51,739 nt of DNA from Escherichia phage vB_EcoS_G29-2. A program made the position numbers and the translations under genes. Position 1 is the first letter of the stretch; each line of letters starts with the position of its first letter. The DNA lies in the sequence record NC_049822.1; one strand, 5' to 3'. Positions 1 through 51,605 of the stretch are shown in pieces. The notes under the pieces were generated by a model. The model worked only from the letters and a program-made list of their open reading frames with translations. It had not been told where the DNA came from and did not search any database.

Positions 1-70
1 AGAGAAACACGGTCCTCTTGCATCCTTTCCGGCAATCCTGGCGAGCGCAACTGTTATTTCCGTTCCCAAT

Positions 71-105
71 GTTATCTCAATTAAGCCTCCGCACTTTGAG
101 ATAAC
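71..105. repeat. inverted repeat GTTATCTCAA / TTGAGATAAC (10-bp arms, 15-bp loop)
   Basis: perfect 10-bp arms at 71-80 and 96-105 in non-coding left end. Confidence 0.6.
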
Positions 106-139
106 AAAATCAGCGTTCACAAACAAAAAGAACAAAATA

Positions 140-300
140 AAATTTATATATATACCCATAAAATCAATAAGTTAGTTATATATGTATTTATATTTGTTAT
201 TTACTGTTATGCTCGTTCTGTGGGTATATGGTGGTGTGGTATTGTTTTTGGTGATATGTATGCGTGGTTGTATACTTTTTAATCAATGGTAATGCGGGGT
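140..300. repeat. AT/TG-rich non-coding element, copy A (homologous to 29770-29935)
   Basis: shared blocks AAATCAATAAGTTAG, TATTTATATTTGTT, TGTGG/TGTGTG, TGGTTGT. Confidence 0.55.
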
Positions 301-456
301 GATTTTTGTATGTATATATATGGGGTAGCGGTAATCCTCCGTCAACCAGGTCAACAAGGTCACTTTTAGCTGTTAAACCAATAACTTAACCAGTGCATTT
401 TGTTATCTCTAAACGCGCCACATGCCAAAAATCGTTATTAAAACACAAAATATATT

Positions 457-486
457 GACATGTAGGAAAGGAAAGGCAATAATGCA
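457..486 (+). promoter_or_regulatory. sigma70-like promoter candidate (TTGACA -17/18- AATAAT)
   Basis: TTGACA at 457-462 and A/T-rich -10 near 480-486, upstream of first gene. Confidence 0.45.
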
Positions 487-519
487 TCCAGTTTAAACGC
501 AACAAAAGGAGTAAATGCC

Positions 520-1005
520 ATGAGCGAAGAAAATATTAGCACCATGTCGCGTAGTGAGTTCTGCGATATGCTTCGCACCCTGGGCGCGGCAATTGGTAGC
601 GGTGAACGTAACAATGTATTCATGCCAGCACTTTTCTTGTGCGCTAACGTGGAGAACGGCGGCGCAATTACGGCATCGTACATGCGCCAGGTGGTCAACC
701 GTGTACCAGAAGTGAAGCAAAAAGGCGTGATCAGCATTAAGCGAAAGGTGACTGATGAGGGTGATGGCTTTGTGTTTACGCTCACAGAAGCCAAAAGCAA
801 GCCACGCGTTCTGACTGGTGAAGAAATCGACGAGATCGCAGAAAAGCGCGCAGAGAAGGCGGTAAGCAAAATTCTTAATCACCTGGTAAACGTAATGCCA
901 AATATCACAGACCTGGAAGGCGATAAACTTGCTGGAGCGTGTGAGGCTATCGGGCGCTACCAGGATATGATCCGTAAACTAGCTGGAGGAAAAGAGGATG
1001 AGTAA
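520..1005 (+). CDS. hypothetical early protein
   Basis: 161-aa ORF, RBS AAAGGAG at 504-510, first gene after promoter-like TTGACA/AATAAT at 457-486. Confidence 0.6.
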   Translation: MSEENISTMSRSEFCDMLRTLGAAIGSGERNNVFMPALFLCANVENGGAITASYMRQVVNRVPEVKQKGVISIKRKVTDEGDGFVFTLTEAKSKPRVLTGEEIDEIAEKRAEKAVSKILNHLVNVMPNITDLEGDKLAGACEAIGRYQDMIRKLAGGKEDE

Positions 1006-1258
1006 GGCATTAATTGGAGTTTTGATTGCAATCGCTACCCTGACCGGATGCGAAAAGGCATCGGAATCAACCGTTGTCGTAGGCGTGGAGTCAGATTTCA
1101 AAGTCGGTCGCCTGTTCACTGTTGACGGATGCACAGCATACAGATTCTATGATAACGGTCGCGCGATCTATTACACCAATTGCAAAGGCGCAACGGATAG
1201 CACGTACAACAGCGGAAAGAACGTAATGCGCCAGCAAGTCACAACAGATATTAAATAG
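998..1258 (+). CDS. putative lipoprotein (signal peptide with lipobox LTGC)
   Basis: N-terminus MSKALIGVLIAIATLTG-C; start overlaps upstream stop; stop codon embedded in motif copy at 1254. Confidence 0.6.
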   Translation: MSKALIGVLIAIATLTGCEKASESTVVVGVESDFKVGRLFTVDGCTAYRFYDNGRAIYYTNCKGATDSTYNSGKNVMRQQVTTDIK

Positions 1259-1300
1259 CACTTTTTGTTAAAACGCCAGGTGCGAATCCTGGCATAATAG
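1254..1300 (+). promoter_or_regulatory. conserved 21-bp motif promoter (motif + spacer hairpin GCCAGG/CCTGGC + -10 ATAATA)
   Basis: AATAGCACTTTTTGTTAAAAC then 19 bp then ATAAT. Confidence 0.6.
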
Positions 1301-1331
1301 CCTCATCGAAACGAGATTGAGGAAAACAAAA

Positions 1332-1517
1332 ATGGCACGTCGCATCACCAAAGACCTTAAAGTTCTGAACAAAGAAAACGTAGTTAAAATCCTGGTTATC
1401 TGGGGATACAACGAAGAAGCAGCAAAGCAGAAGGTAGAGGCAGGTTATGACCTGGCTGTAAAAGCAATGCCAAACGACGACGCCAAAGGCATTGCAAACT
1501 ATGTGGCTTTCTTTTAA
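1332..1517 (+). CDS. hypothetical protein
   Basis: ATG preceded by conserved leader CATCGAAACGAGATTGAGGA; track ORF 1317-1517 trimmed to RBS-supported ATG. Confidence 0.5.
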   Translation: MARRITKDLKVLNKENVVKILVIWGYNEEAAKQKVEAGYDLAVKAMPNDDAKGIANYVAFF

Positions 1518-1532
1518 TTAGCAGGCGAATAA

Positions 1533-1718
1533 ATGAAAACGAAATTAGTCCATAAGTCAGAAATCAAGATCGGCGATACTGTGATTCACAACGGCGAGCT
1601 TAGAACGGTTGGCAAAGAGTCAATAAGCCACGATGAGTTTATGGGGATCTTGTTGTTCGGCGACTCTTATCGGCTGGGTTATAAAATGGTTGAGCTTGTG
1701 GAAGAAGTAAAATTCTAA
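1533..1718 (+). CDS. hypothetical protein
   Basis: 61-aa ORF; stop embedded in motif copy at 1718. Confidence 0.45.
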   Translation: MKTKLVHKSEIKIGDTVIHNGELRTVGKESISHDEFMGILLFGDSYRLGYKMVELVEEVKF

Positions 1719-1764
1719 ATAGCACTTTTTGTTAAAACTCAAAAACGATAACCAGGCATAATGC
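1718..1764 (+). promoter_or_regulatory. conserved 21-bp motif promoter
   Basis: motif then 19 bp then ATAATG. Confidence 0.55.
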
Positions 1765-1817
1765 ATCACATAGGGCGGCACGGCGTCGCCCACTAAAACC
1801 AATCAGGAGAAAGCACC

Positions 1818-2765
1818 ATGTTAAAACTTGCTGACATTAAATTCCCGATCACCTTCGAATCTCGCGGCGTTGGTCATTTCATGTTTACCGACGAGAAGAC
1901 ATGCACTAAGTTTAACGAATACGGAAGTCCAAACGCTTCAACAATGGAGATTGAACACTTCATTGAAGCGCACAATAAACACTACAACTCACTTCGCGAC
2001 TACGGCTATGCAATGCCAGGATACACCTGTTTTCACTACAAGCCATATAAAGGACAGGTGTTACCAATGCGCGCACAGGACATTGCGAGCGCTGCGACTT
2101 ATGCGCGGGCAATTCACGCGCCAGAGAATGCAGAGCCACTAGTAAAAATGCACGCCTTCGACTATAAAAAATTGTGGTGCTTAAGCGTGGACAATATCAA
2201 GTATCCGATCACTTTCCGCTCCGCTGGTAATTCAACGATTCGCTACACATCACGCGACAATGGCGTTTATGGTGATGGTCAGAAATCAGAGTTGAAAGTT
2301 GATTTCTTTGTCAATGGTCACAACAAATTCAATCCACACAACGAAAAGGATAAAGTGTATTACGTGGAAGACATTACAAAACACTTGTTTGGAGAAACAC
2401 CATTCGGCGGCGGGAAGACGTCTATTGCTCAGGCTATAGATAACGTTGCGCGACGTATTGGTGAGCAGATTCACAGTCAAACAATTAAGGCGTCCGGAGG
2501 CTGGCGTATTGATAAGAGCGTCATTGCCTGTCAAGAAATCGTAACGCAGGGCGCGATTGAAGACATGCCGCTTGGCGCTTCAATCATCGGCATCAAAGAC
2601 GACAACGGCGACTGGCAGGATGTTTCATTCCCTGTTAAGCAGATCGAAGTACACGACGACCTGATTTGCCTCCTGGCTCATCATGGCAGCTATAGAGACA
2701 AAGCCTTTGCCGCAGAGCTTAACATCAAGCGCGGAACGATGGTTAAGTGGAAGGTCAAAGCGTAA
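1818..2765 (+). CDS. hypothetical protein with internal tandem repeat
   Basis: 315-aa ORF, RBS CAGGAGA; internal duplication ADIKFPITFESRG / DNIKYPITFRSAG. Confidence 0.7.
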   Translation: MLKLADIKFPITFESRGVGHFMFTDEKTCTKFNEYGSPNASTMEIEHFIEAHNKHYNSLRDYGYAMPGYTCFHYKPYKGQVLPMRAQDIASAATYARAIHAPENAEPLVKMHAFDYKKLWCLSVDNIKYPITFRSAGNSTIRYTSRDNGVYGDGQKSELKVDFFVNGHNKFNPHNEKDKVYYVEDITKHLFGETPFGGGKTSIAQAIDNVARRIGEQIHSQTIKASGGWRIDKSVIACQEIVTQGAIEDMPLGASIIGIKDDNGDWQDVSFPVKQIEVHDDLICLLAHHGSYRDKAFAAELNIKRGTMVKWKVKA

Positions 2766-2808
2766 ATAGCACGAATTGTTAAAACTCAAATGTGGGGCCA
2801 GGTATAAT
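2764..2808 (+). promoter_or_regulatory. conserved motif promoter (variant AATAGCACGAATTGTTAAAAC, -10 TATAAT inside GGCC stem)
   Basis: motif then 17-18 bp then TATAAT. Confidence 0.55.
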
Positions 2809-2838
2809 GGCCTCACTTTCAACGAAGGAGATAAAACG

Positions 2839-3069
2839 ATGTATATTAACAAGAAGATGAAATGCGTTTCCGTTAACTATGGTTGTGCTGGAATGTTCAA
2901 GCCTGGCGAAATCTATACGGCGCAAAAGCTGAAATCATCAACCGGATCCTTTTACGTGAGCAATAGTAAAGGGCATCGCATGTTCCTGAACGGTGGCGAA
3001 GGAACTAAGGTTATGGCGCACGCTATGGTAATTGCTGAATTTGAGGAAGTGAAAGATGGAAACAAATAA
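2839..3069 (+). CDS. hypothetical protein
   Basis: RBS GAAGGAGA 7 nt upstream of ATG 2839; in frame with track ORF 2776-3069. Confidence 0.5.
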   Translation: MYINKKMKCVSVNYGCAGMFKPGEIYTAQKLKSSTGSFYVSNSKGHRMFLNGGEGTKVMAHAMVIAEFEEVKDGNK

Positions 3070-3277
3070 GCGCGTTAAACACAAGTTTATTGATAATCAT
3101 GGTGATGCACTTGAGGTATACAAGTTTGGTGATCGCGTGTTTATTGATGGCACGTTTGAAGGTGGGCGCAGGCCGGATTTTAGGTCGATACTCACCATTA
3201 ACCAGGTGCGCAAGCTGGCGGATAAGTTAAATGATCTGGCAGATGAAATCGAATACAAGCAAATCCACTTTAATTGA
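3056..3277 (+). CDS. hypothetical protein
   Basis: 73-aa ORF overlapping upstream stop. Confidence 0.5.
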   Translation: METNKRVKHKFIDNHGDALEVYKFGDRVFIDGTFEGGRRPDFRSILTINQVRKLADKLNDLADEIEYKQIHFN

Positions 3278-3288
3278 TAGGTTTGATA

Positions 3289-3909
3289 ATGAAAAAATAC
3301 GAATTTGAACTTTGGGGCAGCAAATACCATTTTTCCACGAGCAAGCCGATTGTTATTGTTGATCTGGACGGCACTTTATCCGATGGAACGCATCGCTTGC
3401 ACCTGCTTCCGACAGAAGATTTACACCTTACAGAAAGCTGGTCTGAGTTCAATAAGGCGGCTTTTGGCGATTCGCCGATTAAGAGCACGGTTGCAGTGGT
3501 TAACGGATTATGGATGTCAGGATTTGCTATTGTTATCCTGACCGGACGTAGCGACGAAGTGATGGCGGACACCTTCAAATGGCTTAATGAAAATGGCGTC
3601 AAGTACGACGCATTAATCATGCGCCGCAAGGAAGACAACCGCAAAGACACAATCATCAAAGAAGAAGTCTTACGCGCTATCGGACTGGAAAACATTGTGT
3701 GCGCTTTTGATGATTCGCCGAACGTGGTTAAGCACTTCCGCAGTCTGGGGATCACAACCTATCAGGTCACGGAATACGACAAGCCACATAATCACATCCA
3801 ATCGCACGGCGTGGATGAATTGAAGCCAAAAATCGAATGCGAAGGCGAGCACTGTTTTAGTGTGGTTGATGGTAAATGTTTGCGTTGCGGCGTGGAGGGT
3901 TTGAAATGA
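3289..3909 (+). CDS. HAD-superfamily phosphatase (Pnk 3-prime-phosphatase-like), C-terminal Cys cluster
   Basis: motif IVIVDLDGTLSD (DxDGT) near N-terminus; C-terminal CEGEHC...CLRCG. Confidence 0.65.
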   Translation: MKKYEFELWGSKYHFSTSKPIVIVDLDGTLSDGTHRLHLLPTEDLHLTESWSEFNKAAFGDSPIKSTVAVVNGLWMSGFAIVILTGRSDEVMADTFKWLNENGVKYDALIMRRKEDNRKDTIIKEEVLRAIGLENIVCAFDDSPNVVKHFRSLGITTYQVTEYDKPHNHIQSHGVDELKPKIECEGEHCFSVVDGKCLRCGVEGLK

Positions 3910-4067
3910 CCTGGTTACTTTTAATCTTTGTCACAAGTTACAACTCCGCCGCTATTGAATCGCATGAGTTCCACGGCGAATCAAGATGTCAGGAAGCACG
4001 AAAGCAAGTTGTTCTCCACATGTCAGATAGTGGAAAAGATGTAACGGCGTTATGTGTCCGTAAATAG
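3906..4067 (+). CDS. small hypothetical protein with hydrophobic N-terminus
   Basis: ATG overlaps upstream stop (ATGA); stop embedded in motif copy at 4064. Confidence 0.4.
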   Translation: MTWLLLIFVTSYNSAAIESHEFHGESRCQEARKQVVLHMSDSGKDVTALCVRK

Positions 4068-4109
4068 CACTTTTTGCAAAAACAGATTGTTGGGCTTGCG
4101 GTATAGTAA
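4064..4109 (+). promoter_or_regulatory. conserved motif promoter (hairpin GGGCTT/AAGCCC around -10 TATAGT)
   Basis: motif then 18 bp then TATAGT. Confidence 0.55.
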
Positions 4110-4138
4110 GCCCATCGACAACGAAAAAGGAAAACATC

Positions 4139-4438
4139 ATGTTAGTTCGTAATGCGATTTATAAATTCACCAACGAGATGGGAGTTCAACTTTACCACGT
4201 AAACCATCAAGGCCACACATCAATTGCGATGTATCGCGACGCTCGCGGGAAGTGCAAACCTTCTCTGTGTGGCAGAATTTCTCCTGCGTTCTTCATGTTC
4301 AGATGGTATGCAACAGAACAAAGCAACCATAACCATTGGAATAAAGTATTGGTTGCAGGAGGCCGAATTGTTGCCAGCCACGTAGTCGATCCGCGCAAAC
4401 TAACAAGTCGCCAGCTTCGCAAAATGGCGCGCAAGTGA
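4139..4438 (+). CDS. hypothetical protein
   Basis: 99-aa ORF downstream of motif promoter and leader CCATCGACAACGAAAAAGGA. Confidence 0.55.
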   Translation: MLVRNAIYKFTNEMGVQLYHVNHQGHTSIAMYRDARGKCKPSLCGRISPAFFMFRWYATEQSNHNHWNKVLVAGGRIVASHVVDPRKLTSRQLRKMARK

Positions 4439-4454
4439 TAGAGGAGAAGAACAA

Positions 4455-4640
4455 ATGATATATGCACTTGTATTTTTGGTGATTTTCTTTTATATTTCAG
4501 GACTATTCATCTTCCGAGCATTGGTTAAAGAGTGTGATTGCACGGATAAAGATCAGCCTCTTGTTCTGATGTTCTGGTTTGTGTGGTTTTGGGTGGCGCT
4601 TTACCAGATTGTACGGGATGAAAGCGGCTTTAAGTGGTGA
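4455..4640 (+). CDS. small membrane protein (2 predicted TM segments)
   Basis: RBS GAGGAGAA; hydrophobic stretches IYALVFLVIFFYISGLFIF and LVLMFWFVWFWVALY. Confidence 0.5.
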   Translation: MIYALVFLVIFFYISGLFIFRALVKECDCTDKDQPLVLMFWFVWFWVALYQIVRDESGFKW

Positions 4641-4695
4641 TTCTTGCTATAGCGCATTCATGCAGTGCGCTATGTTGAGATAACAACAGGAGATC

Positions 4696-4833
4696 ATGAA
4701 GATGCGAAACTTCGAAAAAATCGTAACCAAAAAGAAGCGCTACAGCTATGACGAGCACCGCGAGATGAATCAACGCTATCGCAAGAAGCCACAGCGCCCA
4801 GGTAAACATTCAAGCAGACATGGAGAAAACTAA
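4696..4833 (+). CDS. small basic protein (45 aa)
   Basis: not in ORF track (<60 aa); RBS AGGAG 6 nt upstream; fills gap before kinase gene. Confidence 0.3.
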   Translation: MKMRNFEKIVTKKKRYSYDEHREMNQRYRKKPQRPGKHSSRHGEN

Positions 4834-4834
4834 T

Positions 4835-5425
4835 ATGAAGCGCGACATTATCATCCTTAACGGACCGCCAGGAGTTGGCAAGGATACGCTTGCGGCATAC
4901 TTAACGGGCCATCGTTACGCAGCCGTTAAAGCGTCGTTTAAACAGCCTATGTTTGATATTGCGTTTTCCATGCTTGGCGTTTACCGATATGACGAGTTCA
5001 TTGATCTGTATAACGACCGCGAGCAGAAAGAAAAGCCTCAAGCAATCTTGCAAGGCAAGTCTCCTCGCCAGTTCATGATCTGGATTAGCGAAGAAGTTAT
5101 GAAGCCAGCTTTTGGCGAGCAATATTTCGGAAATCGCATGGTTGAGCAAGTACACGAGATGTACAGAGATTTGGCTGTTGTAATTAGTGATGGCGGATTC
5201 CCTGAAGAAATAAAGCCGCTCGTTAAGGCAGGCCATGAAGTTCACATTTGCCGACTGCATCGCGAAGGCTTCACGTTTGATGGCGATTCACGAAACTATA
5301 TTGACCTGAACGGATACCATCACCGAGTAAAACATTACGACTTCACAATGATTGATGGCGATCCAGAAAAGACTGTTGACGAGATCATCAAAACGGTCCA
5401 GTGGAAACACATTAAGATCAAATAG
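4835..5425 (+). CDS. P-loop nucleotide kinase (dNMP kinase-like)
   Basis: Walker A GPPGVGKDT; resembles phage deoxynucleoside monophosphate kinases; stop in motif copy at 5421. Confidence 0.65.
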   Translation: MKRDIIILNGPPGVGKDTLAAYLTGHRYAAVKASFKQPMFDIAFSMLGVYRYDEFIDLYNDREQKEKPQAILQGKSPRQFMIWISEEVMKPAFGEQYFGNRMVEQVHEMYRDLAVVISDGGFPEEIKPLVKAGHEVHICRLHREGFTFDGDSRNYIDLNGYHHRVKHYDFTMIDGDPEKTVDEIIKTVQWKHIKIK

Positions 5426-5466
5426 CACGAATTGCTAAAAGCGGGGCGCAATGCCTCGCTATAATG
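5421..5466 (+). promoter_or_regulatory. conserved motif promoter (variant, -10 TATAAT)
   Basis: AATAGCACGAATTGCTAAAAG then 18 bp then TATAAT. Confidence 0.5.
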
Positions 5467-5495
5467 CAAACACCAATCAACGAGAGGACTTGAAC

Positions 5496-5900
5496 ATGTT
5501 AGAGCTTAACGACATTCGCGTAGGCACAAAATTTCGCGTAACCTGGGTATATGATGAGCGATGCGGCATTCGCAAAGGTGAGATTGTAACAGCTTCCGAT
5601 CGTTATATCGGATCTTTAAAAGAGTTTAACCGACCACGCATCAAGAATGGCTATATCATTACTCGACGACTTGGCTTTGATCATTATTGCGTAGTGGCAA
5701 CTCAAGGCGTTTTGATTGAGCTTAAGCGAATCAGCGATCATCGAGGCTGCCATGTTAAGACAATGAAAATGCCATTTCAGCGAGCGCGATACGATGCGCG
5801 ACGTATGCGCCGACTTGCGCGAAATGCGATCAAGTTCAAAAAGCCTGGTAATGATTTTTACGTCATGTACAATGGGATTGCGCGAAATGCTGGGAAATAA
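5496..5900 (+). CDS. hypothetical protein
   Basis: RBS GAGAGGA; in frame with track ORF 5451-5900. Confidence 0.5.
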   Translation: MLELNDIRVGTKFRVTWVYDERCGIRKGEIVTASDRYIGSLKEFNRPRIKNGYIITRRLGFDHYCVVATQGVLIELKRISDHRGCHVKTMKMPFQRARYDARRMRRLARNAIKFKKPGNDFYVMYNGIARNAGK

Positions 5901-5999
5901 CAACAACGCAACCAATCCTAAGCCACCGTTTGATTTTCATGAAATCATGATTGTGTTATTCTTGATTCTCTTATTTATTTATTCAGTGAGGGCCGCACT

Positions 6000-6263
6000 A
6001 TGGTTTTTAACGCACTAAAACGAATCTTTAAACCTGAATACCGGATCGTTGCTTGCACAGAATGCAAGATTTATTATCTGCAACGCCGCCGCGTTATTGG
6101 TGGGGATTGGGAATACCTGACGGATGATGCTTTCGGCTTTTGGGCTATGGAGTTCAATAGCTACAGCGAAGCGCGTGAATACGCTAAAAAGTTGCATAAG
6201 TTCAGACCTTACAAGCTGCGTTTGCTGGTTGTTAAAAAATGCGACGTATGGGATCACGTATGA
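6000..6263 (+). CDS. hypothetical protein (Cys-x2-Cys)
   Basis: 87-aa ORF, RBS GAGGG. Confidence 0.5.
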   Translation: MVFNALKRIFKPEYRIVACTECKIYYLQRRRVIGGDWEYLTDDAFGFWAMEFNSYSEAREYAKKLHKFRPYKLRLLVVKKCDVWDHV

Positions 6264-6436
6264 AAAGAGTAATTATCACCTTTATTGCCCTTATCGCTGG
6301 TTCTCACTTGGCCTATGAGTATAGCGGCATTGTTGAGTCAATCGGCGGAATGATTATCTTCCTGGCTGGCGCATATTACGGCTACGGCGATGGATTTAAA
6401 AATGGCAAGCGTTACATCCTGACTGGTAAGAAATAA
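6260..6436 (+). CDS. small membrane protein
   Basis: ATGA overlap with upstream stop; hydrophobic IITFIALIAG and MIIFLAGAYYGYG. Confidence 0.45.
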   Translation: MKRVIITFIALIAGSHLAYEYSGIVESIGGMIIFLAGAYYGYGDGFKNGKRYILTGKK

Positions 6437-6479
6437 TGTTTAACCGCGCCGCTTCTGTGGCGCTAAAAGGAGGAAACAA

Positions 6480-6767
6480 ATGGCTAAAAGCAATCGTAAG
6501 ATGTTGATTAACGCATTCGAAAAGGCAGCGCTTGAGCGTGGTTGGAATGACTCATTTCACACGGCAAACTGTATCCGACGTTACGGATTCAAGAATTGCC
6601 GCTCCTGGGCGCGTCAAATGGCTTCATGGTATGATTTTGATGCGCATTATCTTGATATGGATTGCGCCCTAGTCGAAATGATTGAGCAGGCAGCGCTAGA
6701 GGATAGACCGTTGACGCAATCTGATTTTGACGATTTTGTTCGCGATGAAATCTATTACATGAGCTAA
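6480..6767 (+). CDS. hypothetical protein
   Basis: RBS AAAGGAGGAAA; stop in motif copy at 6766. Confidence 0.55.
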   Translation: MAKSNRKMLINAFEKAALERGWNDSFHTANCIRRYGFKNCRSWARQMASWYDFDAHYLDMDCALVEMIEQAALEDRPLTQSDFDDFVRDEIYYMS

Positions 6768-6811
6768 TAGCACTTTTTGTTAAAACTTCCGCGAGGGCAT
6801 TTGTTAAAGTG
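6766..6811 (+). promoter_or_regulatory. conserved motif promoter (weak -10)
   Basis: motif present; -10 region TAAAGT less canonical. Confidence 0.4.
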
Positions 6812-6842
6812 TCCTCATTGAAGCGAAGCAGAGGAAAGCACA

Positions 6843-7100
6843 ATGTCAACCTTAAAAGATAAAAATTTTATTGGTCATGTTAGGGTTAAGTTAATCAATG
6901 TTGACTACAGACCAGATCCAGAGTCGCCAACATTGCGCGAGTGGGCCGGATTCGAAAACGGAAAGGAAATGGTTGTCGAGCTTTACAAAGATGGTGAGAT
7001 GTGGGCGATGGCTGGCATTAATCACAATGGCGAATTTGGCGAAGTAAAAGAAACAGATTGGTTTAGTCTTACAGAGAATGAAGCGGAGATTATCGAATGA
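6843..7100 (+). CDS. hypothetical protein
   Basis: RBS GAGGAAA; 85 aa. Confidence 0.55.
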   Translation: MSTLKDKNFIGHVRVKLINVDYRPDPESPTLREWAGFENGKEMVVELYKDGEMWAMAGINHNGEFGEVKETDWFSLTENEAEIIE

Positions 7101-7330
7101 TCACGATTAACCTTTCAGAGAAGCAAGCATATCAAGTGATGAGCTACATTTCTGGATTTGGTATGGAAGTCGCTATGGGTGAAGTTGCGGATCAGATTTG
7201 CCGTCAACTTACACCAGCACCAACGCGAGCGGCAGAAACTGCCGCATGGCGTAACGAGGCAGGATACATTCAGAAGGCTATTGAATACTGGAAGCGCAAA
7301 AACGAGACTGCGGAGGATGCAGGATTATGA
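7097..7330 (+). CDS. hypothetical protein
   Basis: ATGA start/stop overlap with upstream gene. Confidence 0.5.
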   Translation: MITINLSEKQAYQVMSYISGFGMEVAMGEVADQICRQLTPAPTRAAETAAWRNEAGYIQKAIEYWKRKNETAEDAGL

Positions 7331-7572
7331 TTTACATTCACTACTACCAGATCGGGACAAACGAAAACAAGCAGGAGCGCAGAGCAATTTGTGACACGCT
7401 CGACGATGCGAAAGCACAGCAACGCGTTTTGGGTGGAGTAATTCAGGCTTTTGAGCCAGTGGAAGACATAGAGCACCGAGAGCATTTGAAAGAGATTGTT
7501 GTTGATGAAATTTCATCACTAATCGACGACATGACAAATCACGGGCCTGGTTCTCCGTGGGAAGAGGCCTGA
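7327..7572 (+). CDS. hypothetical protein
   Basis: ATGA overlap; 81 aa, acidic. Confidence 0.5.
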   Translation: MIYIHYYQIGTNENKQERRAICDTLDDAKAQQRVLGGVIQAFEPVEDIEHREHLKEIVVDEISSLIDDMTNHGPGSPWEEA

Positions 7573-7650
7573 TCGACGGAGTGGGATTGCGCTAAAGTTG
7601 CAACGCTTAACAACTTTCGTAAGTTGCTCGACGATTTTTAATTAAAATTG

Positions 7651-7698
7651 AATGCCTCATACAGCGAACAGGACGCATTTTGACGAGGCATTTTTTAG
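7651..7698 (+). terminator. rho-independent terminator
   Basis: stem ATGCCTC/GAGGCAT with T-run. Confidence 0.5.
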
Positions 7699-7711
7699 GT
7701 AAGGTGATTCA

Positions 7712-7840
7712 ATGGATAACTACATAAAACCGTCGCAGCGGTGCGCACAGAAGCAAGAGGAAGCATTAGAACGCGGCGATACTGAAACGGCAATGCACTA
7801 TTTCGAAATGTACAACTTGTGGAAGGGTAGAGGTCTGTAA
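7712..7840 (+). CDS. small hypothetical protein (42 aa)
   Basis: not in track; RBS AAGGTGA; follows terminator 7651-7698; TAATG overlap with next gene. Confidence 0.35.
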   Translation: MDNYIKPSQRCAQKQEEALERGDTETAMHYFEMYNLWKGRGL

Positions 7841-8070
7841 TGTTTGGAATGAACGAGGCACAATTCAACGCTGCAAAACGCCAGGCTAAGAAGTGCGGCG
7901 AGGCAATGAAAGCGGATGTTGAAAAGCGCGGAAAGTATGTTGATGAAGTTATGAAGGGCATTATTGCCGAACATTATCAGCCAGTTGCGCCAATGCTGAC
8001 AATTACCCAATTCATCTGGTTGTGTGGTTATCTTCGTGGGCGATGGGGAAACGCATTTGACCGCGAATGA
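7840..8070 (+). CDS. hypothetical protein
   Basis: 76-aa ORF. Confidence 0.5.
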   Translation: MFGMNEAQFNAAKRQAKKCGEAMKADVEKRGKYVDEVMKGIIAEHYQPVAPMLTITQFIWLCGYLRGRWGNAFDRE

Positions 8071-9423: not shown

Positions 9424-10991
9424 TGCTGATTTGGGAAGACTTAACAGCGGCGCAAAAACGCGCCGTTAAGGAAATGAGCGAATATTCATTCGAAAAGATG
9501 ATCCGCATTTGGTTTCAATTATTGCAAGGTCAGAAATTCTTAGGGAACTGGCATTTCAGCTACCTATGCAGCGAAGTTGAAAAAATCATCAAAGGAGAGT
9601 CACAGAATGTAATTTTCAACATAACGCCAGGCAGTGGTAAAACAGAGATATTCTCGATCCACATGTCACCTTATGCGTCATTGAAAAGTAAGAAGGTGCG
9701 AAATCTTAATCTTTCATTTAGTGATGGCCTTGTCCAGCAGAATAGCAACCGCATTAAAGAGATTATTGGTTCTCCAGAATGGCAGGAGCTATGGCCTGGA
9801 AAGCTGGTAAAGGCAAGCGCAAAGGATCTGATTGTAACCGATGGCGGCAAGGTTAAATTGCAAGTTAACTCGCGATCTATAGGTGGTCAGGTTACTGGTC
9901 TGCGTGGCGGCTACATGGACGATGGATTTACTGGTATGCTGGTTCTTGATGATCCAGACAAACCGGATGACATGCTTTCTAAGGTAAAGCGCGAAGCCGG
10001 ACACATGCGCCTAAAGAACACGGTGCGATCGCGTCGAATGAAGGACACAACGCCCATCGTAATGGTCCAGCAACGGCTACACGTCAATGATTCAACATGG
10101 TTCATGACAAACGGCGGCATGGGCGGCATCCAGTTTAAGGTGGTTAGTATTCCGGCGCTCGTTACTAAGGAATATCGCGAAACGCTTCCTGATTGGTTAA
10201 AGCCTGAGTTTGATCGCGATGTTTTGTCCAGTAAGCCAGTGATGATTGATGGAGTTGCTCATTATTCATTCTGGCCTGCTAAGGAAAGCGCGGAGGAATT
10301 GCTTGCGCTTCGAAATGCTGATCCGTACACGTTCGCTAGTCAGTATCAGCAACAGCCTGTTGCGCTTGGCGGTAACGTGTTTAAAACAGAGTGGTTTCAG
10401 TATTACGGCAGCAGCGAGAAATGCACGCTACCAAAACCGGATCGCTTTGAATATACATTTATCACGGTTGATACCGCACAGAAAACAGGGGAGCTTAACG
10501 ACTACTCCGTGATCTGTTATTGGGGGATGTATAAAGATCGCGTTTACTTCATTGATGGTGTTCGCGGAAAATGGGAAGCACCAGACCTTGAGACTAATTT
10601 TGTTGCGTTCGTTAATCAGTGCTGGAAGCGCAATAAAGAATGCGGAACGTTGCGAAGGATTCATGTTGAAGATAAATCGTCTGGCACTGGTTTGATTCAG
10701 AGTGCAGCGAAAAAAATAATGATCAAGATCAATCCCGTTCAGCGCGATAAAGACAAGGTTACTCGTGCAATGGACGCAGCGCCAGTAATGCGCGCCGGAC
10801 GCGTAGCACTTCCAGAATCGCATCCTATGCTGGCTGAGATACTCGCTGAAGTTGCGGCGTTTACATTCGATGATTCGCATCCTCATGATGATATTGTTGA
10901 TAACATCATTGATGCGGTTAACATTGAAATGAACATGGCAGATGATCCTGTAGGAAGAATGAAAAAATTGGCAGGTTTGCGGAACAAATAG
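9423..10991 (+). CDS. terminase large subunit
   Basis: 522 aa; ATPase P-loop-like TPGSGKT and acidic nuclease-type C-terminus; position between TerS and portal. Confidence 0.85.
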   Translation: MLIWEDLTAAQKRAVKEMSEYSFEKMIRIWFQLLQGQKFLGNWHFSYLCSEVEKIIKGESQNVIFNITPGSGKTEIFSIHMSPYASLKSKKVRNLNLSFSDGLVQQNSNRIKEIIGSPEWQELWPGKLVKASAKDLIVTDGGKVKLQVNSRSIGGQVTGLRGGYMDDGFTGMLVLDDPDKPDDMLSKVKREAGHMRLKNTVRSRRMKDTTPIVMVQQRLHVNDSTWFMTNGGMGGIQFKVVSIPALVTKEYRETLPDWLKPEFDRDVLSSKPVMIDGVAHYSFWPAKESAEELLALRNADPYTFASQYQQQPVALGGNVFKTEWFQYYGSSEKCTLPKPDRFEYTFITVDTAQKTGELNDYSVICYWGMYKDRVYFIDGVRGKWEAPDLETNFVAFVNQCWKRNKECGTLRRIHVEDKSSGTGLIQSAAKKIMIKINPVQRDKDKVTRAMDAAPVMRAGRVALPESHPMLAEILAEVAAFTFDDSHPHDDIVDNIIDAVNIEMNMADDPVGRMKKLAGLRNK

Positions 10992-11018
10992 CACGAATCG
11001 ATAAACCAATATATAATC

Positions 11019-15226: not shown

Positions 15227-15244
15227 CACAAAATTATGTTGCAC

Positions 15245-15266
15245 GTTTAACAAAAAATGCTATCAT
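15245..15266 (-). promoter_or_regulatory. motif copy in inverted orientation between head genes (function unclear)
   Basis: TTAACAAAAAATGCTAT on + strand; lacks the usual 19-bp spacing to a -10. Confidence 0.3.
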
Positions 15267-18968: not shown

Positions 18969-19003
18969 ACTGTACAATCATGCTACACGATTCATAATCA
19001 ATT

Positions 19004-19024
19004 CTTTTAACAAAAAGTGCTATC
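19004..19024 (-). promoter_or_regulatory. motif copy in inverted orientation upstream of chaperone gene (function unclear)
   Basis: CTTTTAACAAAAAGTGCTATC on + strand immediately before RBS of 19037. Confidence 0.3.
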
Positions 19025-38037: not shown

Positions 38038-38511
38038 TTAGCAATTAGTGCTTTCAGGTTTATACAGGAATCCGCCAGGTTCATAATCTGACATTCTTAC
38101 CACTCGCAACATTTCACGCTTATCACATCTCTTTGTGAGCGGTTTGCCATTGGAATCAAATCGCAGATCTGGACGGCAGAATGACGCGCGATAGCCTTGA
38201 CAACCATATTTCTTGTAATCGTTATGCACCTTTTGAGCGCCAGCGGCTGAAATCATACCGCGAACGCGCCACTGATTTACAGTTTGCTGGCTAACGTTAA
38301 GACGCTTTGCCATTGCTGACACGCTGCCGTAATACTCAATAAGAATGTCAAGCCGTGCTTTTAGTCCGGCGCGCACTTCATCTTTTAAAACATAGTATCC
38401 TGTAGGGCGCTTGCGCTTTTTCTTATCTTTACCCCGTCGAGTTCCGTTATTGCCATTAATTGTGCGCTTGTCAATCTTGCCTGTTGATACCGCGATTCGC
38501 TGCTCTTTCAT
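38038..38511 (-). CDS. HTH DNA-binding protein (putative regulator)
   Basis: helix-turn-helix SVSAMAKRLNVSQQTVNQWRVRG; basic K/R-rich N-terminus. Confidence 0.6.
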   Translation of the reverse strand: MKEQRIAVSTGKIDKRTINGNNGTRRGKDKKKRKRPTGYYVLKDEVRAGLKARLDILIEYYGSVSAMAKRLNVSQQTVNQWRVRGMISAAGAQKVHNDYKKYGCQGYRASFCRPDLRFDSNGKPLTKRCDKREMLRVVRMSDYEPGGFLYKPESTNC

Positions 38512-38523: not shown

Positions 38524-38569
38524 AATAGCATTTTTTGTTAAACGATGATTTAATGATTGTGTATTATAC
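38524..38569 (+). promoter_or_regulatory. conserved motif promoter for helicase operon (no spacer hairpin, -10 TATTAT)
   Basis: CAATAGCATTTTTTGTTAAAC then 19 bp then TATTAT. Confidence 0.5.
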
Positions 38570-40640
38570 ACTCCAAATGGCATTACTCAAAGGTTTTAGA
38601 ATGATTCCAAACATTGAAAAGCAAATATCAGCACTTGGTGAAGCGGTAATTAAATCCATTCAGGAGCGGTTCACTGTTGGCGATATTGTGCCTTACCCTT
38701 ACCAGTGCGTTGCATACGCTGAGATCGCAAAGCGTATGAAAAATTATGAGCATCCATTCTTTGTTAAAGCGTCGGTATCGGCTGGCAAAACATTGATGTT
38801 TGCAATGGTTGCTCACCAGTGCCGGAAAATGGGCTTAAAAATGATGGTTCTTGCTCGCCAAGCTGAGATTGTGGATCAAGATTCTGAAGAGATAACAAAT
38901 CTTGGCGTGCCGAACTCAATCTATTGCGCAGGGCTGAAGACAAAGAGCGCATACTTTCCGATCGTTGTTGGTTCTGAGGGAACTGTAGTTAATGGACTGT
39001 TTAAAGCGCTTGGCGACTATGTTCCGCACGTTATCGGGATTGACGAGTGTCACCAGGTGGATTGGGAAGACCTTGCCGACGCCATAGAGAAAGATGAGTC
39101 ATTTTTACAAATGACGACAAAGAAAGGCGAAAGAGTACCAAATCCAGATTATGACATAGAGAGCGATAACGAGTGCGAAGAGTTCCTGATTGGTGAGGAT
39201 GGCTTGCCAATGGAGGGAACAGGCCGCACACAATACACTGTCATTATCATGGAAATGATGCGACGTTGCAGGAAAGCATATGGCCATGAACTGCGCATAT
39301 TTGGCATGACTGGATCGGAGTTTCGCGGTGTAGTCCCAATACTGGTAGAAGATAAAAAGCAGAAAGGATTTTGGCGTGAACAGGTTACTAATATTGACAC
39401 CAACTACCTGATCAAGTTCGGTTCTGTTGTTCCGACTAATTTTGGCGACGTTGGCGATCTCGGGTATGACCTTTCAGAGTTTGAGGCATCAAGCGAGGAT
39501 GGCGTTGCAGACTTTGACGCTAAAACGCTTCGCAGGATGGAACAAAAAATTCATGAAGAAGCGACCATGACAAAGCGCATCATGGCGAAAGTGCACGAGA
39601 TCTGTAAAAACCGTAACGGTGTACTTGTGACATGTGCAGGCGAAAGGCACTGTAAAGAGGCGGCGGCAGCATTGCCGCCTGGAACGACTTACAGGATCAT
39701 TACTGGTAAGACTGGCGATAACCAGCGCAAGGAGTGGTTGAAAGAAGCATACGAGGGAAAGGTTAAATACATCTTCCAGGTGCAGGCGCTAACTACTGGC
39801 GTTAACGTGCCGTTTTGGGATACGTCTGTTATTCTGCGTAAGATTGGATCTCTTACGTTGCTGATTCAGCTTTTAGGGCGCGGAATGCGACTGCTTAAGA
39901 AATGGCATAAGGAGCAAGGATTCAAGAAAGATGATCATCTCGTCATGGATTTTTCAGGAACGATGGACGAGCTAGGGGAGCTTTATTTTGATCCGATACT
40001 GGAACAGGCGCAGCACCAGAAGCGATTCAGAAATGGTAAAGATCCGAAGCCTTGTCCTGTTTGCGGAACTCTTAACAGCTATTATGCTCGTCGTTGTATG
40101 CACGTAGACGAAAACGGCAACAGATGCGAGTGGTTCTTTAAATTCAGGACATGTGATGATCAGATTGACCCGCGCACTAAAAAGATTATTCATCGCGGTT
40201 GCGGAACGAAGAATGATATTGCGGCCAGGGTATGCAGACATTGCGACATGTCATTGATTGACCCTAACGAGAAGTTAAGCGGAAAGCACTACACAAAAAA
40301 CGACTGGTTTCAGGTGCAATCTTTCTCGGTTGACATGACGAAAAACCAGAAAGGGATAATATTTAATTATGAGCTTTCCGATGGCATAGACACTTTCAGG
40401 GCGAGAGAGATATTTTTCCCTGAATCTGAGAGCCAAATTTGCCGCGCAAAATGGCGAAGCGTTGCTCTTAAGCACATACCAGATCGCCGTGTTGCTGGCA
40501 TGGTGGCGAGCTATCGTAATGCACGTAAAATCATGCAATATGTGAATCACATCATGCCACCATCGCGTGTAACTCACCGCAAGACTAGCAAGGGTGAAGA
40601 TAATTTGTACAAGAAGGACTTTAATTATGGCAATGACTGA
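38535..40640 (+). CDS. ATP-dependent helicase (SF2, DEAH-type) with C-terminal zinc ribbons
   Basis: Walker A SAGKT, DEAH-like IGIDECHQV, C-terminal CPVCG...C...C clusters; start uncertain (38535 TTG, ATG 38578 or 38601). Confidence 0.75.
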   Translation: MLNDDLMIVYYTLQMALLKGFRMIPNIEKQISALGEAVIKSIQERFTVGDIVPYPYQCVAYAEIAKRMKNYEHPFFVKASVSAGKTLMFAMVAHQCRKMGLKMMVLARQAEIVDQDSEEITNLGVPNSIYCAGLKTKSAYFPIVVGSEGTVVNGLFKALGDYVPHVIGIDECHQVDWEDLADAIEKDESFLQMTTKKGERVPNPDYDIESDNECEEFLIGEDGLPMEGTGRTQYTVIIMEMMRRCRKAYGHELRIFGMTGSEFRGVVPILVEDKKQKGFWREQVTNIDTNYLIKFGSVVPTNFGDVGDLGYDLSEFEASSEDGVADFDAKTLRRMEQKIHEEATMTKRIMAKVHEICKNRNGVLVTCAGERHCKEAAAALPPGTTYRIITGKTGDNQRKEWLKEAYEGKVKYIFQVQALTTGVNVPFWDTSVILRKIGSLTLLIQLLGRGMRLLKKWHKEQGFKKDDHLVMDFSGTMDELGELYFDPILEQAQHQKRFRNGKDPKPCPVCGTLNSYYARRCMHVDENGNRCEWFFKFRTCDDQIDPRTKKIIHRGCGTKNDIAARVCRHCDMSLIDPNEKLSGKHYTKNDWFQVQSFSVDMTKNQKGIIFNYELSDGIDTFRAREIFFPESESQICRAKWRSVALKHIPDRRVAGMVASYRNARKIMQYVNHIMPPSRVTHRKTSKGEDNLYKKDFNYGND

Positions 40641-41046
40641 TAAAGGCGATTATCTGGAGTTTTACGAAAGAGATCCGACGGATACGCTAAAAGAGGAATC
40701 ACACCAGATCGGGGCGTTTCAATGGTTGACTTATGCTTACCCTGAATTGCTGGCATGGCATACGAAAAACGAGGGCGACAAGGGGATCGCCACCGCAATG
40801 ATGGATCAGCAAGCCGGACTCGTTAAGGGCGTAAGTGATTTTATCATCCTGATTGGATTAAAAGGCCGTTATCCGTTTGCAGCAATTGAGATGAAGCGCG
40901 TCAATAAGTCTGGAAAGGGTAAGGCTTCACCAGTCAGTAAGGAGCAAAAAGCCTTCTTACGACGTGTGCGCGAGCTTGGCGGATTCGCTGCCGTAACATA
41001 CGGATATAAGCAATTCATGATCGCTGTAGAATACATGATGAAATAG
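40627..41046 (+). CDS. VRR-NUC domain nuclease
   Basis: PD-(D/E)xK-like SDFIILIG...AIEMKR; start overlaps helicase stop. Confidence 0.6.
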   Translation: MAMTDKGDYLEFYERDPTDTLKEESHQIGAFQWLTYAYPELLAWHTKNEGDKGIATAMMDQQAGLVKGVSDFIILIGLKGRYPFAAIEMKRVNKSGKGKASPVSKEQKAFLRRVRELGGFAAVTYGYKQFMIAVEYMMK

Positions 41047-41088
41047 CACTTTTTGTTAAAACAGGCGCGAAGGATTGCGCCATAATAA
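41042..41088 (+). promoter_or_regulatory. conserved motif promoter (hairpin GGCGC/GCGCC, -10 CATAAT)
   Basis: motif then 19 bp then ATAATA. Confidence 0.55.
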
Positions 41089-41120
41089 CACCAGTTCAAC
41101 AAGCAACAGGTAATTAAGAA

Positions 41121-41826: not shown

Positions 41827-42066
41827 ATGCAGAAAGAAAGAAGCGTTTATTTAAATGAAACTGGAGAGTGGTTGTTATTTCGCGCTATGGTTTGCGAGGC
41901 GCTTGATAAAAACGAGTTCATAAAACCGCTATTAGGTTGTGATCCGTGGGAGTTTACAAGCGCGCTTGATATGAGCTTTGAGGAAACAAGAAAACTACCG
42001 CTTGAAAAATGGCATGAGCAGATCGGTAAAGACTTGCAAGAGTTTTACGAATCCGCGACAAAATAG
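41827..42066 (+). CDS. hypothetical protein
   Basis: RBS GGAG; stop in motif copy at 42062. Confidence 0.45.
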   Translation: MQKERSVYLNETGEWLLFRAMVCEALDKNEFIKPLLGCDPWEFTSALDMSFEETRKLPLEKWHEQIGKDLQEFYESATK

Positions 42067-42107
42067 CACTTTTTGTTAAAAAGCCCGGCCCTGTGTCGGG
42101 CATAATT
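42062..42107 (+). promoter_or_regulatory. conserved motif promoter (hairpin GCCCG/CGGGC, -10 CATAAT)
   Basis: motif then 19 bp then ATAATT. Confidence 0.55.
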
Positions 42108-42138
42108 ATTTCATCAAAACGAACAAGAGGAAAACAAA

Positions 42139-45250: not shown

Positions 45251-45282
45251 TTTTAAAATCCTCATATTCGTTCCGATGAAAC

Positions 45283-45328
45283 AAATATACCCGATACGAG
45301 ATCGGGAGTTTTAACAAAAAGTGCTATT
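45283..45328 (-). promoter_or_regulatory. conserved motif promoter (hairpin CCCGAT/ATCGGG, -10 ATATTT)
   Basis: minus-strand motif then 19 bp. Confidence 0.5.
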
Positions 45329-47423: not shown

Positions 47424-47452
47424 TGATGATAACTCCTTTTTTTGATGCGGCA

Positions 47453-47497
47453 ATAATACCGCACCAATGCTACCCGCATTTAACAAAAAATGCTATT
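47453..47497 (-). promoter_or_regulatory. conserved motif promoter (variant, -10 TATTAT in hairpin loop)
   Basis: AATAGCATTTTTTGTTAAAT then 19 bp then TATTAT. Confidence 0.5.
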
Positions 47498-48097: not shown

Positions 48098-48128
48098 CGT
48101 TTATTTCTCCTTTCGTTTCGGTGAAGTG

Positions 48129-48173
48129 ATTATGCCAGGCTTTTACACCTGGCTTTTAACAAAAAGTGCTATT
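48129..48173 (-). promoter_or_regulatory. conserved motif promoter (hairpin GCCAGG/CCTGGC, -10 CATAAT)
   Basis: minus-strand motif; same hairpin sequence as copy at 1254. Confidence 0.55.
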
Positions 48174-49497: not shown

Positions 49498-49671
49498 TAT
49501 GCAATCCTCATTATATTTGGTGTGGTAACTATATCAGGTTTGAGAAATATTGTTTAGCAATTTGTGCTATCAGTTGAAATAGCTATGGCGATTTGCTCGC
49601 TTTCCGTCTCCGCCATAATGATCATTAGAAACGGGAATCATCCAGGAATTATGAAATATTATTAGTCTCAT

Positions 49672-50147: not shown

Positions 50148-50177
50148 CTTTAAATCCTCGTTCGTTGTCGATGGATG

Positions 50178-50223
50178 TAATATACCATTCAGGCGCATAC
50201 CGTTTTTAACAAAAAGTGCTATT
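50178..50223 (-). promoter_or_regulatory. conserved motif promoter (-10 ATATTA)
   Basis: motif then 18-19 bp then ATATTA; followed by conserved leader. Confidence 0.5.
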
Positions 50224-50651: not shown

Positions 50652-50684
50652 TTTCAAATCCTCGCATTCGTTATCGATGTGTGT

Positions 50685-50729
50685 AATGTACAGGAATACG
50701 AGGATTGAGTTTTAACAAAAAGTGCTATT
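50685..50729 (-). promoter_or_regulatory. conserved motif promoter (-10 TACATT)
   Basis: motif then 18 bp then TACATT; followed by conserved leader. Confidence 0.5.
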
Positions 50730-51523: not shown

Positions 51524-51560
51524 TGCTATCTCCTGATGGGTATCTCGTTTCGATGTGTCT

Positions 51561-51605
51561 AATGTACCCGATCAGGGCAATTCAGTTTTAACAAAAAGTG
51601 CTATT
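51561..51605 (-). promoter_or_regulatory. conserved motif promoter (-10 TACATT)
   Basis: motif then 18 bp then TACATT; drives leftward operon from 51523. Confidence 0.5.

Follow-up and report, generated by a model that had tools for sequence, protein, structure and literature searches.

How phages of the T1 type transcribe their genes is an open question. The re-annotation of phage TLS in 2024 revealed only three sigma70-like promoters and no gene for an RNA polymerase or a sigma factor (PMC11447400). It described a 21-nt direct repeat, aaATAGCACnnnTTGnTAAAA, with 18 intergenic copies that are oriented along transcription and precede start codons by about 76 nt, and noted the repeat also in T1, Rtp and Rogue1 (PMC11447400). 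Its authors left three readings undecided, namely a stoperator, an enhancer-binding site or an UP element (PMC11447400). Here, the genome of Escherichia phage vB_EcoS_G29-2 was analyzed (NC_049822.1, 51,739 nucleotides; this whole stretch is called the window). Hanrivervirus phages (Drexlerviridae), among them SFP17, herni, aaroes and pSf-1, share about 94% identity with the window. The window carries 22 copies of a repeat, ATAGCACnnnTTGnTAAA, which is the same element as the TLS repeat and falls into the same TTT, GAA and AAA subgroups. The repeat itself was already known; its identification as a family of class II marbox promoters appears to be new. The -10 element at a fixed distance, the start-site block, the hairpin and the marbox match are added here to the TLS description (PMC11447400), and our literature search found no paper linking marboxes or MarA, SoxS or Rob with promoters of T1-like phages.

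The marbox has been defined as 5'-gcannwwntgnnaaa-3' (PMC12052159). At class II promoters it is forward-oriented and overlaps the -35 (PMC12052159, PMC10268841). In Salmonella, chromatin immunoprecipitation sequencing combined with Cappable-seq showed that forward sites cluster near -41, and that class II promoters have canonical -10 elements and start sites and no recognisable -35, with a mean of 1.9 of 6 matches (PMC10268841). The same paper cites structural work in which sigma70 is displaced from the -35 element of micF. The micF marbox is centered at -41.5 (PMC9638938) or at about -41 (PMC8811837). The repeat of the window resembles these promoters of Enterobacteriaceae (micF, fumC, lpxC P2) in having a 20-bp asymmetric site with GCAC and YTAAA elements in forward orientation, a center near -41, 17-18 bp to a normal sigma70 -10 and no usable -35. 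Host marboxes, however, are degenerate and scattered, one per promoter, whereas the phage has about 20 near-identical consensus copies in 52 kb. These precede almost every early or middle transcription unit and are fused to a stop codon, a hairpin and a conserved leader.

Similar designs are found in T4-type phages. The T4 middle promoters (MotA box plus AsiA) likewise combine a host-type -10 with another element that replaces the -35, and use an activator acting on sigma70 region 4. The MotA box, TGCTT, is centered near -30 and read by phage MotA with AsiA, whereas the window has a host-type site near -41 and no phage activator gene was found in it. The PeSLs of T4-type phages (PMC2839356, PMC4122927; the latter also mentions Mot-box promoters) are repeated intergenic units of early promoter and stem-loop that flank small variable genes and coincide with indel boundaries between close relatives; the repeat studied here may be comparable. 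In contrast to the cassettes of the window, PeSL promoters come close to the sigma70 consensus and include a -35 (TTGACA-N17-TATAAT and variants). In PeSLs the stem-loop lies 5' of the promoter, but in the window phage it overlaps spacer and -10.

The repeat, the marbox consensus and class II geometry

Copies of the repeat were located across the window. The 21-mer AATAGCACTTTTTGTTAAAAC returned 16 matches at up to three mismatches, compared with 0.01 expected, and 18 at up to five; the core ATAGCAC-N3-TTG-N-TAAA returned 22 at up to two mismatches. An earlier interpretation of this DNA, here called the sequence-only reading, had proposed a recurring motif family in the early region with about 18 copies genome-wide, and both claims are borne out. 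Within the interval 1254-6811 the 21-mer starts at 1254, 1718, 2765, 4063, 5421 and 6766. Four of these positions had been given correctly; the other two had been placed at 2764 and 4064, each off by one. The claim that the stop codon of the upstream gene lies inside every early motif stands in a weaker form: in all six early-region copies the stop codon of the upstream open reading frame (ORF) overlaps or abuts the motif, either as TAG at marbox positions 2-4 or as TAA ending at position 0 or 1, but some merely abut, for example the TAA of ORF 1533-1718. Genome-wide, a stop codon lies within or against the motif in 16 of 22 copies. Every copy that precedes a gene runs in the same direction as that gene.

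A -10 element was accepted if its second base was A, its sixth base T and at least 4 of 6 bases matched TATAAT. A hexamer passing this rule lies 3' of the motif in 20 of the 22 window copies, 18 nt (n = 15) or 17 nt (n = 5) past the 20-bp motif, while the background chance is 0.021 per fixed offset. Thus the -10-like hexamer at fixed spacing, as described in the sequence-only reading, was recovered. The scan of related Drexlerviridae suggested there was also productive. Five genomes were pooled (the window, T1, TLS, the Klebsiella Webervirus mtp2 and the Loudonvirus DTL), giving 98 sites, of which 87 have a -10 at 17-19 nt. The gap is exactly 18 nt in 73 of the 87, 17 nt in nine and 19 nt in four. 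As a control, the genome of a Chaseviridae coliphage was scanned and gave zero sites.

The repeat agrees with the marbox throughout. All ten specified positions of gcannwwntgnnaaa are matched by GCACTTTTTGTTAAA and by its variant GCACGAATTGCTAAA. Scanning with this pattern alone gave 21 perfect matches in the window versus 0.6 in shuffles, and 20 of the 22 repeat sites have no mismatch to it. An older consensus, AYnGCACnnWnnRYYAAAYn, reportedly goes back to Martin et al. 1999. Here, 22 matches at up to one mismatch were obtained against 1.8 expected; 20 of the 22 repeat sites have at most one mismatch and all have at most two, with 17 sites showing a single mismatch, at position 19. Read as a marbox, the repeat is ATAGCAC-nnW-TTG-Y-TAAAAC with a 20-bp core. 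Positions that were free in the search pattern also obey the marbox code in the 87 pooled sites: position 9 is A or T in 85, position 10 is A or T in all 87, and position 14 is C or T in 86. Phages with portal proteins only 54-60% identical have the motif in unchanged form, which fits a highly conserved recognition partner.

The position of the site is that of a class II promoter. In all 20 window sites with a -10 the marbox is forward, with GCAC promoter-distal and TAAAA promoter-proximal. When the -10 is set at -12 to -7, the motif spans about -51 to -31 and the marbox center falls near -41, where an activator would sit, as had been argued before. The earlier points that a canonical -35 is missing and that the TTGTTA of the motif is too distant also proved correct. 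At 16-18 bp spacing, TTGACA is matched at best in 2.65 of 6 positions on average, leaving no usable -35, and TTGTTA lies 21-22 bp from the -10. The cassettes thus lack the TTGACA-like hexamer 16-18 bp upstream of the -10 that marks canonical sigma70 promoters, and a sigma70 consensus scan recovers only one of them (2779-2808, via TTAAAA). For comparison, host promoters were taken from the E. coli K-12 genome sequence. In micF, the marbox ACAGCACTGAATGTCAAAAC is followed after 18 nt by TAGAAT, with the annotated RNA start 8 nt past the hexamer; in fumC, ATGGCACGAAAGACCAAACA is followed after 17 nt by AATAAT. The inaA and nfo marboxes of K-12 were too degenerate for the thresholds used. Since element, orientation and distance are the same as in class II promoters, a conserved block at -51 to -31 without a -35 is explained.

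Taken together, the repeat is probably a class II marbox promoter element for a host activator of the MarA/SoxS/Rob type, and the early genes of the phage would then be host-activated. The marbox would serve as the asymmetric site for one of the monomeric activators with a pair of helix-turn-helix (HTH) motifs, MarA, SoxS, Rob or RamA, and near -41 in forward orientation it would stand in for the -35 hexamer. The bound activator would contact sigma70 region 4 and the alpha C-terminal domain and recruit host RNA polymerase, as at micF and fumC. It would be host-encoded, either Rob, made constitutively, or MarA or SoxS once induced. The sequence-only reading had instead favored a phage-specific signal requiring a phage factor. 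The perfect match to the host marbox in class II geometry argues against this, as does the finding that no AraC-family gene was detected in the window.

Anatomy of the promoter cassettes

We propose the following order for a cassette: stop codon of the previous gene, 20-bp marbox, G+C-rich hairpin spacer of 17-18 bp, sigma70 -10, putative C-A start, TCGAAACGA and a leader of 23-31 nt. The cassettes and related elements of the window are given below with coordinates and strand.

1255..1305 (+): cassette with marbox ATAGCACTTTTTGTTAAAAC at 1255-1274, hairpin GCCAGG..CCTGGC and -10 CATAAT at 1293-1298 (from motif, -10 and folding); predicted start about 1305 (cAtcgaaacga), start codon 1332; the TAG of ORF 998-1258 forms marbox positions 2-4.
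1719..1770 (+): cassette, marbox 1719-1738, -10 CATAAT 1757-1762, start codon 1818; the TAA of ORF 1533-1718 abuts the marbox.
2766..2815 (+): cassette, marbox ATAGCACGAATTGTTAAAAC at 2766-2785, gap 17 nt, -10 TATAAT 2803-2808 flanked by a hairpin, start codon 2839.
4064..4114 (+): cassette, marbox ATAGCACTTTTTGCAAAAAC at 4064-4083, -10 TATAGT 4102-4107 in the loop of GGGCTT..AAGCCC, start codon 4139.
5422..5472 (+): cassette, marbox ATAGCACGAATTGCTAAAAG at 5422-5441, -10 TATAAT 5460-5465, start codon 5496.
6767..6817 (+): cassette, marbox 6767-6786, -10 TAAAGT 6805-6810 within the covarying stem GAGGGCA..TGTCCTC, start codon 6843.
31181..31231 (+): cassette after the recE-like gene, marbox ACAGCACAAATAGCTAAACA, gap 17 nt, -10 TATAAT 31218-31223.
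38525..38575 (+): helicase-gene cassette, marbox ATAGCATTTTTTGTTAAACG, -10 TATTAT 38562-38567.
41043..41093 (+): cassette upstream of the Dam methylase gene, marbox 41043-41062, -10 CATAAT 41081-41086.
42063..42113 (+): cassette, marbox 42063-42082, -10 CATAAT 42101-42106, start codon 42139.
51554..51604 (-): first cassette of the leftward early arm, marbox 51604-51585, -10 TACATT 51566-51561.
50678..50728 (-): cassette, marbox 50728-50709, -10 TACATT.
50172..50222 (-): cassette, marbox 50222-50203, -10 TATATT.
49521..49570 (-): cassette, marbox ATAGCACAAATTGCTAAACA, gap 17 nt, -10 TATAGT.
48122..48172 (-): cassette, marbox 48172-48153, -10 CATAAT.
47446..47496 (-): cassette, marbox ATAGCATTTTTTGTTAAATG, -10 TATTAT.
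45277..45327 (-): cassette, marbox 45327-45308, -10 TATATT.
38004..38054 (-): primase-gene cassette, marbox AAAGCACTAATTGCTAAAAA overlapping the stop codon of the Cro/C2-like regulator gene; -10 TATCAT in a hairpin followed by a T-run, a composite terminator-promoter.
29640..29690 (-): cassette of the cor-like gene, marbox ATAGCACTTTTTGCTAAACG, -10 TATAGT.
18973..19023 (-): cassette antisense to tail genes, a marbox and the -10 TAGCAT, leading into the bidirectional terminator that follows the major tail gene.
10988..11007 (+): orphan marbox overlapping the large terminase gene's stop codon, then a terminator, without a correctly spaced -10.
15244..15263 (-): orphan marbox antisense to capsid genes, without a valid -10 (TATGCG).
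455..483 (+): canonical sigma70 promoter, TTGACA-17-AATAAT, preceding the rightward arm's first gene (DUF7174, 520-1005); corresponds to P01 of TLS.
8071-8099 (+): canonical sigma70 promoter before the terminase region.
38563..38590 (-): canonical sigma70-like promoter TTGAGT-16-TATAAT of the Cro/C2-like regulator gene (38038-38511); corresponds to P57 of TLS.
1299-1320, 4108-4130, 42107-42125 and 51540-51560 (-): C-A-TCGAAACGA block, also present in most other cassettes.
1275-1293, 2772-2813, 4091-4113, 6792-6815 and 38003-38031 (-): inverted repeats, from folding.

The three canonical promoters in this list are the only good ones seen in the window. In positions 1-10000, consensus sigma70 matches are fewer than in shuffled sequence (10 versus 20.6). 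Both antisense sites are kept in T1 (at 18850 and 15086), and the one in the capsid region also in TLS (15042). The cassette at 18973-19023 may give rise to a short antisense RNA. Orphan marboxes like that at 10988-11007 are found in T1 at 8362 and 25021.

The conserved parts of the promoter were defined with the 87 aligned sites. The -10 consensus is T/C-A-T-a-a-T (YAtAaT). The selection rule fixes A-11 and T-7 in every retained site; positions outside this rule also match, with T-12 in 71 and T-10 in 72 of 87 sites. G at -14 occurs in 69 of 87, and TG in 7 of the 20 window sites. The 18-nt spacer is G+C-rich and its sequence is not conserved. A second conserved block, C-A-TCGAAACGA, begins 6 nt past the -10. 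We infer from its position that transcription starts here, with C at -1, A at +1 and then TCGAAAC. This transcribed CATCGAAACGA block was not mentioned in the sequence-only reading, which is also silent on the spacer hairpin and on the prior publication of the repeat (PMC11447400). It may act in promoter escape, mRNA stability or translation. From the predicted start to the start codon the leader measures 23-31 nt in 17 of the 19 window cassettes with a predicted start codon, and the leaders end in a GAGG-type ribosome-binding site. A cassette measures about 50 bp from marbox to start site and about 75 bp from marbox to start codon.

The G+C-rich inverted repeats sit in the 18-nt spacer or surround the -10. 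Folding of spacer and -10 gave a mean minimum free energy of -9.4 kcal/mol compared with -4.2 kcal/mol in shuffles (Wilcoxon p = 2e-13), and 71 of 87 sites in the five genomes fold at -4 kcal/mol or better. A subfamily with nine members has a 7-bp stem around the -10 that is paired in 98.4% of cells and shows compensatory changes in six of seven pairs, a result reached by 0 of 500 shuffles. The G-U pairs of this stem fall on the sense strand. Covariation together with sense-strand G-U pairs speaks for a hairpin at the RNA level, within read-through transcripts from upstream, and suggests that the spacer hairpin forms at the 3' side of the upstream gene. A U-tract is missing from most hairpins. 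Full terminators are found in the primase-gene copy (38004-38054) and in a copy in phage RB43.

Candidate activators and rival readings

Genes for possible activators were sought with a profile built from MarA, SoxS and the N-terminal domain of Rob. Of these sequences, MarA and SoxS were checked against Pfam, and MarA also against its PDB entry. No match was obtained in six-frame ORFs of the window, T1, TLS, mtp2 and DTL (all E > 0.1). No AraC-family (HTH_18) gene was found in the window or in more than 1,000 Drexlerviridae records by profile and by tblastn with DIBBI_047, an AraC-family phage protein described below. A phage homologue of MarA was rejected, being negative by hidden Markov model, phmmer, a thin profile-profile comparison and two structure predictions. 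In line with the sequence-only reading, no RNA polymerase gene was detected in the window phage, nor was a sigma factor gene. Because no gene for such an activator was found in the phage, a host-encoded one is most likely. Furthermore, the leftward early arm opens directly with a marbox promoter and no canonical one, which is most simply read as use of an activator that is there when infection begins. Rob is produced constitutively, MarA and SoxS on induction.

The dibbiviruses offer a comparison. Xanthomonas phage DIBBI (JN022534.1; 36382-36792, 32052-46641) is a myovirus with T1-type helicase, primase, Dam, RecE and Erf genes. It carries about 10 cassettes with the same marbox, 17-18 nt gap and -10, and the commonest 11-mers of its genome are AGCACTTTTTG and TAGCACTTTTT. 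DIBBI and its relatives PSKM and AAM37 thus share with the window both the cassettes and the T1-type helicase/primase/Dam/RecE module, but they encode a 136-aa AraC-family protein, which the window and the searched Drexlerviridae records do not. With the MarA/SoxS/Rob profile this protein, DIBBI_047, gives a match at 2e-15; the solved proteins most closely related to it are MarA (4e-7) and RamA (6e-6). The stop codon of the DIBBI_047 gene sits within a marbox. Homologues about 95% identical are present in the Pantoea phages PSKM and AAM37. Among 50,697 phage records, tblastn detected homologues in 30; six of these are dibbivirus records from three phages, the others are unrelated, and none is from Drexlerviridae. 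The combination of these promoters with their own MarA-like gene ties the motif to the AraC family, with two caveats. Dibbiviruses also infect Pantoea, an enterobacterium, which weakens the argument, and the residues of MarA helix 3 that we take to be its base contacts are not conserved in DIBBI_047.

Both caveats weaken the case for activation by a host MarA-type protein, and several further observations speak against it. Host marboxes are far more degenerate than the phage sites, and A3 and T11 are conserved in the 87 phage sites although they are free in the host consensus; together with the uniformity of the repeat, this could indicate another or an additional binding protein. Unstressed cells contain little MarA and SoxS, and most of their Rob is inactive; a virulent phage would therefore run a risk in depending on these proteins. 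The literature search returned no transcription-start or transcriptome study and no binding or genetic data for T1-like phages. Finally, an activator of another fold encoded by the phage itself may stand behind the promoters. Three small potential DNA-binding proteins are conserved in all five Drexlerviridae genomes. The Cro/C2-like regulator (38038-38511) is also present in DIBBI and has its own canonical promoter. The 130-aa protein (45445-45837) is predicted as a single winged helix (pLDDT, the predicted local distance difference test, 85); its best Foldseek E-value is 0.46, to folds of the MarR/IclR/BlaI type, with no AraC-family match. The 128-aa protein (47711-48097) is predicted to be all-beta (pLDDT 86). 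The product of the first rightward gene, gp01 (DUF7174, 520-1005), was dropped as an immediate-early regulator, being without an informative match and, at the threshold applied, lacking a conserved counterpart in T1 and the Klebsiella phage.

These proteins give substance to the idea that a phage-encoded protein without the AraC fold reads the repeat, either as an activator in the manner of T4 MotA or as a repressor of early promoters like the stoperators of mycobacteriophage L5, the marbox likeness being convergent or secondarily exploited. The Cro/C2-like regulator is among the two or three genes with a canonical sigma70 promoter, as expected of a factor made before its targets; the conserved winged-helix protein would be another candidate, and host marboxes vary more than the repeat does. 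The TLS authors likewise proposed a stoperator or enhancer site (PMC11447400). However, the site lacks symmetry and has two half-sites spaced by one helical turn, which suits a monomer with two HTH motifs and not a dimer of the Cro type. It would be a large coincidence if the site of an unrelated protein matched the host consensus throughout, in the same orientation and at the 18-bp distance of micF. Moreover, no canonical promoter serves the leftward early arm, which opens with a marbox promoter; the first genes of this arm would therefore stay unexpressed until the phage factor existed. We regard a phage-encoded reader as unlikely. That sigma70 holoenzyme needs no activator, with the A/T-rich repeat providing an alpha contact similar to an UP element and the G at -14 (a partial extended -10) offsetting the missing -35, seems less probable still. 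The -10 elements are good, the G at -14 and the TG doublets are frequent as given above, the repeat has T- and A-tracts, and early genes need expression immediately on infection; the TLS authors also saw a resemblance to UP elements (PMC11447400). Yet the invariant, G+C-containing ATAGCAC block is no feature of UP elements, and the tracts are about 8 bp out of register with the UP consensus. In addition, 15 near-invariant positions across a deeply diverged family argue for recognition by a sequence-specific protein.

It is very improbable that the repeat is mainly a recombination or RNA-level element, that is a boundary of gene shuffling, or a terminator or processing signal of the upstream gene. 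Homology with aaroes, slyngel, herni, pSf-1 and egaa starts or stops exactly at cassette edges (1254, 1274, 1796 and 6845), as it would if the repeats mediated the swapping of gene modules, the spacer hairpin covaries and tolerates sense-strand G-U pairs, the RB43 copy holds a full terminator, and the PeSLs of T4-type phages are a precedent. The cassettes join a promoter to a significant, covarying stem-loop; the enrichment of breakpoints at the cassettes is weak (4 of 21 ends, p = 0.057, few genomes compared). A hexamer at fixed distance in which A-11 and T-7 are invariant, a conserved C-A start and uniform leaders of 23-31 nt are properties of promoters, and roles in recombination or at the RNA level can be by-products of a repeated promoter cassette. 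This explanation, like that of holoenzyme alone, is compatible with promoter function and probably secondary to it. Known elements were also compared with the motif. TAGCAC..TTG of the motif resembles a sigma54 promoter (TGGCAC-N5-TTGC), but this reading was rejected: the doublets lie 8 and not 10 bp apart, AG stands in place of the first one, and a sigma70-type -10 comes next at fixed distance. An extended -10 within the motif (TGtTAAAAC) has no T at -7 and leaves the conserved hexamer further downstream out of account. As a -35, TTGTTA or TTAAAA would require spacers of 21-22 or 18-19 bp and have at most 4 of 6 matches. Compared by eye, the motif showed no match to sites for CRP, FNR, IHF, Fis or ArcA. 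A boxA/boxB antitermination signal was dropped, because the fixed -10 distance and the start-site conservation explain the data better.

Possible mobility of the cassette and possible consequences for the phage family

Cassettes of the T1 type are also found outside the family. In Escherichia phage RB43 (AY967407.1, 57679-57775), a T4-like Pseudotevenvirus, one lies at the stop codon of the DNA ligase gene. It consists of a perfect marbox, a hairpin with T-run that forms a full terminator, and after these TATTGT and CATCGAAACGA; the gap between marbox and hexamer is 29 nt, not 18. In related T4-like phages of Klebsiella and Enterobacter, the marbox portion of the query matches at two to three places per phage. 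The RB43 copy suggests that the cassette moves between phage families. In the same searches, twenty records named 'Campylobacter phage' (host C. jejuni) closely matched the enterobacterial phage DNA of the window, which looks like misattributed hosts or contamination. The region 120-320 between the divergent early arms of the window is non-coding, with AT-rich runs (tatatatata) and G/T-rich repeats (ggtggtgtggtattg, gcgtggttgtatac), and may be a packaging or replication signal.

T1-like phages, with no encoded RNA polymerase or sigma factor and only three sigma70 promoters in TLS, would obtain from the class II marbox a concrete mechanism of transcription, testable with existing strains and purified proteins. 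We consider it an evenly balanced proposition that a family of virulent enterobacterial phages including T1 has nearly all of its early and middle transcription wired to the mar/sox/rob system through about 20 class II marboxes, and that dibbiviruses are autonomous through their own MarA-like gene. If true, compact and tightly defined activator-dependent promoters would be available for engineering. Common coliphages and Klebsiella phages, many of them candidates for therapy, would depend on or gain from MarA, SoxS, Rob and RamA, the regulators of multidrug tolerance. Interactions of phage with antibiotics and with bile would be predicted, and mutations in rob, mar or sox would be a new route to phage resistance. 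Phage expression would be coupled to the antibiotic, bile-salt and oxidative-stress state of the host, and replicating phage DNA might in turn titrate the host mar/sox/rob activators.

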